DNA from: an uncultured Chloroflexia bacterium
GTDB taxonomy: Bacteria > Chloroflexota > Limnocylindria > Limnocylindrales > CSP1-4
Direction: 5' to 3'
DNA length: 64,000 nucleotides
NCBI GenBank assembly: GCA_963841135.1
Contig: CAWJBJ010000005.1
Location: forward strand, 355,062-419,061
Shown here: piece by piece, positions 13,744 through 15,328 of the stretch
How positions within the stretch are numbered: the stretch's first letter is position 1
Layout: the number at the start of each line of letters is the position of its first letter
Translations under genes and position numbers: made by a program
Notes under the pieces: model-generated
What the model saw: the letters and a program-made list of their open reading frames with translations, nothing else
Database searches by the model: none
What the model was told of the DNA's origin: nothing

Positions 13744-14163
13744 CTAGCGGGGCAGCCGCTCCCAGTCGACCCAGCGGGTGCCGTCCCACCAGCGATGCCA
13801 GGTGGTCCCGTCACGGCCGGGCGCCCAGACGTCGATCCGATCGGCGCTCCACGACGACGCCGCAGGCGTGCCGGTCAGCTCGCCGCCGAGCGACTCCCAC
13901 GGATGCCACGAGGTGCCGTCCCAATAGCGGTTCCACAAGGCGCCGTCGTCGAAGACCGCGAACACCTGGAGCCGGTCGATGCCCCACGCGGTGGCTGCCG
14001 GCGCGGAGGCCAGCGTCCCGCCGAGCGACTCGGGCTCGGACCAGGTGCCGGACACGAGAAAACGGTGGATCAGCCCACTGGACTCATCCACCGTGAAGAG
14101 GTCGATCCGATCAGGTCCCCACGAGACCGCGGCGGTCCCGATCGGTGTCGGTGTCGTGCTCAT
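13744..14163 (-). CDS. Three-repeat tryptophan-rich beta-propeller lectin-like protein (PLL/fucose-lectin-type blades)
   Basis: 139 aa; three repeats of about 45 aa: WGPDRIDLF, WGIDRLQVF...WESLGG, WSADRIDVW...WHRWWDG. Confidence 0.7.
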   Translation of the reverse strand: MSTTPTPIGTAAVSWGPDRIDLFTVDESSGLIHRFLVSGTWSEPESLGGTLASAPAATAWGIDRLQVFAVFDDGALWNRYWDGTSWHPWESLGGELTGTPAASSWSADRIDVWAPGRDGTTWHRWWDGTRWVDWERLPR

Positions 14164-14173
14164 GGAGCACAGG

Positions 14174-14408
14174 TTACTTGGTCGGGGCGAGGGTCCGGCG
14201 AAGATCGTCCGCGACGTACGAGTCGAGGCGATCGGTCGGCGCCGGCTGACGTGCGGCTCACGAACGCGAACGCGTTCGCGAGGGCCCGACGGGGCCACGA
14301 CGGACGGACCGGCAGACCGGCCTGAACGAGCGCGACGCGCCGCTGGTGATCCATCTCGCGGGTGCGGTCCGCGGCGATGTCGAGGGCGAGAAAGGCGATG
14401 GGATGCAT
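14174..14408 (-). CDS. Small hypothetical protein, about 77 aa (one frameshift)
   Basis: RBS GGAG then MHPIAFLALDIAADRTREMDHQRRVALVQAG...; after a one-base shift it ends RLDSYVADDLRRTLAPTK*. Confidence 0.55.
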
Positions 14409-14467
14409 GGGGAATGTCTCCTGGGTGAGCGATCGGTGGTCGAGGGTTCGCGTGGTCGACATGCGAG

Positions 14468-14584
14468 TTACCGGCGGTGGTCGTCGGTCATGCCGTCGCG
14501 GGAGTCCGCGCCCCAGTTGACCGCGGCGAAGTCCACCACGAGGAAGGCCGCGATGAGGCCGACGAACATCACGATTGGTTCCAT
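14468..14584 (-). CDS. 38-aa small membrane protein
   Basis: RBS AGGAGG then MEPIVMFVGLIAAFLVVDFAAVNWGADSRDGMTDDHRR*; one hydrophobic helix plus WGADSRDG. Confidence 0.65.
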   Translation of the reverse strand: MEPIVMFVGLIAAFLVVDFAAVNWGADSRDGMTDDHRR

Positions 14585-14611
14585 TTCGGACCTCCTTGTC
14601 CTTGCGTCCCG

Positions 14612-14692
14612 ATAACCCTTTAAGAGTTCTTTATCGGTTACTCGTACAGTACCCTCTTGCGCGTAACCTGTCAAGTGGTCTAAAGTGGTTAC
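14612..14692. promoter_or_regulatory. Divergent sigma70 promoters with two TAACC-N18-GGTTA inverted repeats
   Basis: TAACC 14613-17 / GGTTA 14636-40 and GTAACC 14663-68 / GGTTAC 14687-92. Minus promoter TTGACA(14669-74)-17-TACTGT(14646-51); plus promoter TTGCGC-18-TAAAGT(14681-86). Confidence 0.65.
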
Positions 14693-14695
14693 ATC

Positions 14696-15328
14696 ATGCA
14701 ATCGCAAGCCGCCCTCCACGCCCTCGATCCGGGCCACGCCCACGACGTCAACGTGGAGATCACCTTCGACTTCCTGAACACCCTCGACTACGACGATGGT
14801 TTCCCACGCGAGGGTCTGCCGACCCTCGAAGGCGTCCTCGCCTGGTTCGCCGACCACGGCCTGATCCATCGCGAGGGCGCCGATCGCCTGCGGCGTGAGG
14901 CCGTCTCCCGGCCGCGGGTCGCGGCCAAGGACCTCGAACGCGTCCATGCCGTGCGCGCGGCGCTCCGCGAGGTCGCCGATTCGGTCGTCGAGCACCGGGC
15001 TGCGCGCAAGGACGCGCTCGCGACCATCAACAGGGCGCTCCACGCCCGCCAGGTGATCGAGCTCGCGCCGTCGCCCGACGGCGTGCATGTCGACCACCGC
15101 CACGTCGGCGATCCGGTCGACGATGCGCTGGCGCGACTGTCCGAGGCCCTGGTCACCGAGCTGACCGCAGGCGATCCCGAGCGGATCCGCATCTGCGACA
15201 ACGACACGTGCCGCTGGGTCTTCTACGACACCTCACGCACGGGTCGCCGCCGCTGGTGCGACATGGCCACATGCGGCAACCGGGCGAAGGCCGCGCGCCA
15301 CCGCGCGAAGGTGGCCGCCAAGAACTGA
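14696..15328 (+). CDS. ABATE/CGNR zinc-finger putative transcriptional regulator
   Basis: N-terminal FDFLNTL (ABATE); C-terminal RIRICDNDTCRWVFYDTSRTGRRRWCDMATCGNRAKAARHR. Confidence 0.9.
   Translation: MQSQAALHALDPGHAHDVNVEITFDFLNTLDYDDGFPREGLPTLEGVLAWFADHGLIHREGADRLRREAVSRPRVAAKDLERVHAVRAALREVADSVVEHRAARKDALATINRALHARQVIELAPSPDGVHVDHRHVGDPVDDALARLSEALVTELTAGDPERIRICDNDTCRWVFYDTSRTGRRRWCDMATCGNRAKAARHRAKVAAKN

Follow-up and report, generated by a model that had tools for sequence, protein, structure and literature searches.

A CGNR/ABATE regulator gene, two invariant palindromes and a divergent micro-protein operon form a conserved candidate repressor module in soil Limnocylindrales

The 64,000-nucleotide (nt) stretch of DNA analyzed here (the window) derives from an uncultured soil bacterium of the Limnocylindrales (Chloroflexota), whose genome of 3.46 Mb is assembled into five contigs with a GC content of 71%. 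At positions 13744-15328 of the window, a plus-strand gene encoding a zinc-finger regulator of the CGNR/ABATE family lies back-to-back with three minus-strand genes, which encode a 38-amino acid (aa) membrane peptide, a small protein of about 77 aa and a lectin homologue. The 111-bp gap between the CGNR gene and the peptide gene contains two overlapping divergent promoters and two palindromes of the form TAACC-N18-GGTTA. Comparison of 59 distinct (non-identical) loci revealed the CGNR gene, both operators, the peptide and the small protein together in every one of them. We consider it likely, although not assured, that this arrangement constitutes a local module in which the CGNR protein represses both its own gene and the micro-protein operon. 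The compact divergent unit with shared operators that had been proposed in the original prediction was recovered in full, with both palindromes situated in the gap, and its parts are as follows.

14696-15328, plus strand: CGNR/ABATE zinc-finger regulator, 210 aa (Pfam PF07336 and PF11706; homology to PDB 3H0N)
14657-14686, plus strand: CGNR promoter, -35 TTGCGC (14657-14662), 18-nt spacer, -10 TAAAGT (14681-14686)
14664-14691, no strand assigned: operator site 2, TAACCTGTCAAGTGGTCTAAAGTGGTTA, half-sites invariant in 19/19 genus loci and 59/59 unique loci
14646-14674, minus strand: peptide-operon promoter, -35 TTGACA (14674-14669), 17-nt spacer, -10 TACTGT (14651-14646)
14613-14640, no strand assigned: operator site 1, TAACCCTTTAAGAGTTCTTTATCGGTTA, half-sites invariant, spacer sequence variable
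14468-14584, minus strand: 38-aa membrane peptide, MEPIVMFVGLIAAFLVVDFAAVNWGADSRDGMTDDHRR, with a Shine-Dalgarno (SD) sequence AGGAGG at 14590-14595
14174-14408, minus strand: small protein of about 77 aa, MHPIAFLALDIAADR...RRLDSYVADDLRRTLAPTK, with its own SD AGGAGA, frameshifted in the assembly
13744-14163, minus strand: three-blade PLL/PHL-type lectin homologue, 139 aa, no signal peptide, PF03984 (DUF346)

To define the control region we aligned the gap over 19 loci of the same genus and then compared it over the 59 non-identical loci. The promoters were taken from this alignment, as a generic promoter scan detected none in the region; the operon promoter was missed because the -10 rule of that scan is stricter. 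The TTGACA-N17-TAnnnT of the operon promoter is retained in 59/59 loci, and the consensus of the CGNR promoter over the same loci reads CTTGCGCgTAACCTGTCAA..Ggt.TA.aGTGGTTA. In the CGNR promoter, site 2 overlies the spacer, the -10 and the start; it also encloses the -35 (TTGACA) of the peptide promoter. Site 1 begins 5 nt past the -10 of the peptide promoter in the window (most often 7 nt among the 59 loci) and so extends over approximately the first 28 nt (+1 to +28) of the operon transcript; its spacer is N18 in 57 loci and N17 in the other two. The starts of the two sites are mostly 51-54 bp apart, or about five helical turns. Taken together these positions fit repression, with site 1 at the transcription start and site 2 lying across the core of the CGNR promoter. 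A riboswitch or other RNA reading of the TAACC/GGTTA pairs was dropped, given that an Rfam scan returned no match either for this locus or for two others that have additional operator sites.

The TAACC-N18-GGTTA motif proved to be highly specific. Only three copies are found in the complete genome, two of them at this locus and one at C5:910957, and no TAACC/GGTTA pair with a spacer of 10-17 or 19-29 occurs anywhere in it. Both sites are present at the CGNR locus in 12/12 CGNR-positive genomes searched, which carry 0-2 other sites each, while the reversed-pattern control returned 0-1 per genome. No copy was found in four genomes of the genus that lack the CGNR gene, although two of these hold peptide/small-protein pairs, nor in the nine sister-family genomes searched. 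The motif has also been kept beside more remote CGNR genes on metagenomic contigs, with three sites beside a 259-aa CGNR protein (L082/L083) and two sites each on L084, L085, L089 and L090; on L082-L085, L089 and L090 one of the motif sites has TTGACA inside it. A natural swap control is provided by loci at which the peptide stands beside a different regulator, namely a MocR-like GntR protein (L068, L075) or a 338-aa GntR protein (L077-L081), and at none of these was the N18 motif found. The motif thus follows the CGNR regulator rather than the peptide target, and this is the strongest available argument for CGNR binding to the palindrome.

Additional copies of the motif were seen outside the module. 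The third site in the window's own genome (C5:910957-910984) is intergenic and precedes a putative leaderless open reading frame (ORF) of 48 codons, the stop of which overlaps the start of the glutamate dehydrogenase gene (gdh; ATGA). In sister genomes, a class-III aminotransferase gene is preceded by a TTGACG-N17-GATACT promoter with an extra site directly behind it (L021-L024, in G001, G008, G004 and G009), and other extra sites lie over the promoter of an EamA transporter gene divergent from an Ada/Ogt gene (L025-L027, in G001, G008 and G012). The extra sites in sister genomes may be lineage-specific additions to the regulon. As neither these nor the site upstream of gdh are common across genomes, they were not counted as part of the module.

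The regulator has an N-terminal ABATE domain (PF07336, E = 1.5e-14, residues 24-158) and a C-terminal zinc finger (PF11706, E = 8.5e-21, residues 163-205). All four Cys residues of the treble-clef finger and the CGNR motif are present, the latter region reading ICDNDTCRWVFYDTSRTGRRRWCDMATCGNRAKA and aligning to 3H0N, with which the protein matches at E = 9e-10 by PDB sequence comparison. The sole other hit of the family scan was DpdH, which at 16.6 bits is not meaningful, and that identity was rejected. Orthologues occur in 19/24 genus relatives, with identities of 64-81% for the intact copies and lower scores for two broken ones, and no zf-CGNR gene was found in the 14 control genomes searched. 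The mRNA is probably leaderless, since the gene lacks an SD and its ATG lies 9-10 nt past the -10. A second zf-CGNR gene in the same genome (C4:613667-614227), in which CGTA replaces CGNR, is divergent from a gene for a 93-aa protein with an N-terminal membrane helix and no Pfam match; the whole-genome pattern search placed no N18 palindrome there.

The founding structure of ABATE plus zf-CGNR proteins is Jann_2411 from Jannaschia sp. CCS1 (PDB 3H0N), which shares the PF07336 and PF11706 architecture of the regulator described here at a low identity outside the zinc finger. Its authors proposed that it regulates as a dimer, with a cavity for a ligand that would control DNA binding allosterically, and gave no DNA site (PMC2954205); dimeric, sequence-specific DNA binding is a proposal for the family at large. 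Our full-text literature search found no published operator, target or ligand for the CGNR/ABATE family. Whereas Jann_2411 is without a known DNA site, target or ligand, at the present locus the comparative data point to a specific palindrome and an unchanging target operon.

With regard to the genes that travel together, the small protein divergently adjoins CGNR in all 19 CGNR-positive genus relatives, and a recognizable peptide is present in all but one of these (G019). In the exception (locus L005) the first ORF past the operators is an unrelated 64-aa frame, probably another assembly frameshift. A scan over one genome per species, queried with the small-protein motif, gave 48 loci, of which 46 have CGNR and the operators and the other two are MocR-linked pairs; the same arrangement was also seen on more distant metagenomic contigs. 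The gap between peptide and small protein measures 13-57 nt in 47/48 loci with both genes called (223 nt in the remaining locus), and no strong hairpin was found in the short gaps, making co-transcription of the operon genes plausible as judged from gene spacing. The comparative genomics that the original prediction had called for therefore defines a fixed core of regulator, operators, peptide and small protein, to which the lectin is a facultative addition.

The peptide has one transmembrane helix with a conserved Asp (D18), followed by a tail of the form G-x-D-S-R-[DE]...D-D-H-x-R that is probably cytoplasmic. Four tail residues (G25, D27, S28 and R29) never vary, and three more (D34, H36 and R38) hardly do. 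Gene calling yielded an intact copy at 55/59 loci, always with an SD and with a length of 37-41 aa (mostly exactly 38). Divergence over the tail amounts to 0.24, 0.26 and 0.50 at codon positions 1, 2 and 3, respectively, a signature of a translated gene. In an exhaustive profile search we obtained 994 peptide-family clusters at 50% identity, mostly of 38-50 aa and sharing the core LDxAALRWGxDSR[DE]; of ten clusters examined, none carried an informative name. The peptide is also found in other settings: as a monocistronic gene with a clear terminator, divergent from the 338-aa GntR gene near alpha-glucan genes (GlgE, GH57 and isoamylase; L077-L081), divergent from the MocR-like GntR gene in company with the small protein and a DinB-family gene (L068, L075), and as a copy without a nearby regulator (L088). 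Its occurrence beside three regulator families suggests a general role, so far undescribed. Bacteria possess a number of small regulatory membrane proteins such as MgrB, AcrZ, KdpF and Prli42, which the peptide resembles in size (about 30-50 aa), in its single transmembrane helix and in its short conserved soluble tail. On the other hand, it has no sequence relationship to them, and no partner membrane complex is known for the peptide.

The small-protein ORF as assembled begins MHPIAF... at 14408 and runs to a TGA at 14160-14162, overlapping the ATG of the lectin. DNA alignment with four intact relatives revealed one extra base near 14232, without which the protein has 77 aa, ends ...RRLDSYVADDLRRTLAPTK and terminates at a TAA (14174-14176). 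The overlap with the lectin start noted in the original prediction is hence a product of the frameshift, the true stop lying 10 nt ahead of the lectin ATG. Where called, the protein is 75-91 aa long in 47/48 loci and usually has an SD. At least 1,315 of the candidates scored exceeded the threshold as members of its family, and all of those listed are hypothetical and without a Pfam domain. The AlphaFold2 model is a two-helix hairpin (helices 3-30 and 38-76) with a mean predicted local distance difference test (pLDDT) score of 82.

The third gene encodes a lectin homologue with tandem W-motif blades (PF03984). Repeat-by-repeat alignment with PHL, PLL, PLL2 and PLL3 of Photorhabdus gave E-values from 1e-46 to 2e-30, the best match being PHL (5mxe; summed E = 1e-46 over six aligned stretches), while RSL was weaker (E = 2e-6). 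The conserved Trp and Gly positions are present, and aromatic positions are kept in the PHL alignment. The claim that all three outputs are of unknown function was consequently wrong for this gene. Members of the PLL family bind L-fucose and O-methylated sugars at sites between blades (PMC6943638). The W-motif repeat of the window's protein is the same as theirs, but the Photorhabdus lectins have seven blades in one chain and here there are three (orthologues are 133-148 aa), so that a closed propeller would need oligomerization. The protein further differs from its Photorhabdus homologues in residing in a free-living soil Chloroflexota and in a micro-protein operon; any sugar binding by it is putative.

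Of the 19 CGNR-positive genus relatives, 17 have one lectin gene each, invariably at this position. Among the 59 loci it is present in 40, partial in two and absent from 16, with one contig being too short. Mapped on a maximum-likelihood tree of CGNR, its presence and absence imply about 10 changes, at least seven of which are forced by well-supported branches. The lectin is therefore a facultative accessory gene and not part of the core, in agreement with the suspicion in the original prediction that its membership might be incidental, a suspicion strengthened by the ten loci with a hairpin before the gene that are described below. In lectin-less loci an intrinsic terminator directly follows the small protein. 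Two close relatives of this kind (L029 and L031) have kept a remnant of about 45 nt of the first blade directly past the small protein, in the form of a hairpin with a T-run, the gene remnant thereby being reused as the intrinsic terminator of the operon at that point. Alignment to L029 and L031 places this very hairpin inside the window's intact lectin ORF (14053-14094). In the window, on the other hand, the gap between small protein and lectin is only 10 nt, and co-transcription is the simplest reading.

Family scans of the window proteins matched both predicted flanking genes, with DUF3500 to the left of the unit and, to its right, an F420-type LLM oxidoreductase. DUF3500 adjoins the operon in the four closest relatives only, and the far-side neighbours of the operon differ from locus to locus. 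On the CGNR side LLM and leuS are commonly nearby, in convergent orientation; the LLM gene is without an operator, and a single contig has the module turned round with respect to it. Several reading frames between 10033 and 19433 are split, including those of leuS, the LLM oxidoreductase, DUF3500, a LacI-type regulator and an alpha-glucosidase. Given that leuS is essential and yet frame-split, the assembly is indel-prone, and single frameshifts in the window should not be taken as pseudogenes.

According to the mechanism that we favor, the CGNR protein, probably a dimer like Jann_2411, would bind the two TAACC-N18-GGTTA palindromes five helical turns apart. A dimer on site 2 would block the regulator's own leaderless promoter and also cover the divergent -35, and a dimer on site 1 would block the start of the near-consensus, otherwise constitutively strong operon promoter. 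A signal sensed by the ABATE domain would then release the repressor. The fixed outputs would be the membrane peptide with its intramembrane Asp and the 77-aa two-helix protein as its partner, to which the lectin would be added as a co-transcribed accessory in some two thirds of lineages, the present one among them. What the sequences show is the gene set with its operators and promoters, how these are conserved and that they occur together with the regulator; we infer DNA binding by CGNR, repression rather than activation, a ligand, and an envelope or glycan role of the outputs. The interpretation offered in the original prediction is supported in part: the conserved divergent module is borne out, whereas none of the data point to a response to a ligand or to stress, and sensing of membrane stress or carbohydrates would be a guess.

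The proposed scheme has a clear parallel in TetR/TetA modules, which likewise have regulator and target back-to-back, overlapping promoters and two palindromic operators in the gap, and which combine autoregulation with target repression (a logic that is predicted here). The differences are that TetR employs a helix-turn-helix, in contrast to the treble-clef zinc finger of the CGNR protein, that the half-sites at the present locus are much wider (5 bp + N18 + 5 bp), and that the targets of TetR modules are pumps or enzymes where those described here are micro-proteins. The regulatory logic is thus of a known kind, whereas the regulator family and the outputs are uncharacterized.

A number of observations weigh against the repressor mechanism. 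Co-occurrence is the single line of evidence from which CGNR binding to the palindrome is predicted, and a distance of 23 bp (about 2.2 turns) between half-site centres is more than would ordinarily be expected of a simple dimer. Relative to the operon promoter, site 2 extends from about -52 to -25, from where a bound protein could also activate. Neither the peptide nor the small protein has a match in Pfam, NCBIfam, PHROG or PADLOC, and a Foldseek search of the PDB with the small-protein model likewise gave none. If the inserted base in the small-protein gene is real, the module may be damaged in this genome. Lastly, expression of the lectin may be uncoupled or attenuated by hairpins before or inside the gene. 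In the window, the intact lectin ORF holds the following element.

14053-14094, minus strand: hairpin with T-run inside the lectin ORF, ACGGTGGAT...ATCCACCGTTTTCTCGTG, from the terminator scan, -23.3 kcal/mol

In addition, ten loci of other clades (L010, L011, L012, L046, L053, L054, L063, L064, L065 and L070) have a terminator-like hairpin in the 71-111-nt gap between small protein and lectin, an example being GAGCGCCTGCC...GGCAGGCGCTC followed by TTCGATTC, and at these loci the lectin may depend on read-through or on a promoter of its own. An internal terminator had been named in the original prediction as grounds for abandoning the unit. As far as peptide and small protein are concerned the unit stands, their short gaps having no strong hairpin, but its extension to the lectin is weakened by these ten loci.

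Other explanations for the locus must also be considered. The main alternative, conceivable albeit unlikely, is that the peptide and the small protein are part of the signaling loop itself, acting as a membrane-tethered anti-repressor or feedback device in which tail and helical partner sequester or modulate the regulator, in a logic that might be likened to MgrB acting on PhoQ. Such a role would suit a peptide whose family is as large as 994 clusters, whose tail motif is strictly conserved and which recurs beside three unrelated one-component families (CGNR, MocR-like GntR and the 338-aa GntR), as well as a small protein that is a bare helical hairpin without enzyme-like features. However, a target gene would give the same adjacency, the peptide on L088 has no nearby regulator, and the small protein is missing from the 338-aa GntR loci. 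Although speculative to a similar degree, the LDxAALRWGxDSRD peptide could more broadly be a widespread and hitherto unrecognized membrane micro-protein that partners cytoplasmic one-component regulators from at least three unrelated families and, with its helical partner, relays the state of the membrane or envelope to the regulator as part of the sensor. If true, an operator (TAACC-N18-GGTTA), a regulon and a signaling partner would all become known for the CGNR/ABATE family for the first time.

The placement of site 2 raises the prospect that CGNR activates the operon from this site and represses only itself, site 1 being modulatory, since the stretch from about -52 to -25 is one that class II activators can occupy. 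We regard this as improbable, because the operon promoter, which comes close to the consensus in each of the 59 loci, ought to work without an activator, and because site 1 over the transcription start is a classic repressor position. Slightly less probable still is that the peptide acts as a membrane toxin similar to type I toxins or holins, silenced by the repressor and neutralized by the small protein. A tiny single-pass peptide with a consensus promoter, a strong SD and apparently tight double-operator control, paired with a small helical protein, would fit such a system. Yet inheritance appears to be vertical, with stable CGNR-side synteny (leuS, LLM) across many species, no mobile-element context was seen, neither PADLOC nor PHROG matched the peptide or the small protein, the Rfam scan found no antisense RNA or Rfam family, and the peptide also occurs without the small protein. 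Finally, the genes might be syntenic with no regulatory link whatsoever, and the palindromes bound by another factor or serving as structural elements of RNA or DNA. CGNR binding is after all a prediction, and TAACC/GGTTA could pair in RNA as a 5-bp stem. This we hold to be very improbable, given that the motif goes with the CGNR gene rather than with the peptide, that site 2 lies mostly in untranscribed promoter DNA, that the spacer is fixed in length and variable in sequence without compensatory pairing, and that there was no Rfam match.

These findings bear on several protein families at once. The peptide and small-protein families are neither named nor represented in Pfam, and are often missed by gene callers. 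To our knowledge the PLL family is known only from insect-pathogenic Photorhabdus, and the three-blade lectin is a minimal form of it. As for the regulator itself, CGNR/ABATE proteins are a very large family of predicted regulators for which the literature search returned a single crystal structure but neither a DNA site nor a target or a ligand. The locus described here offers a concrete candidate operator together with a fixed target operon, conserved in dozens of species, by which this orphan family becomes directly testable.

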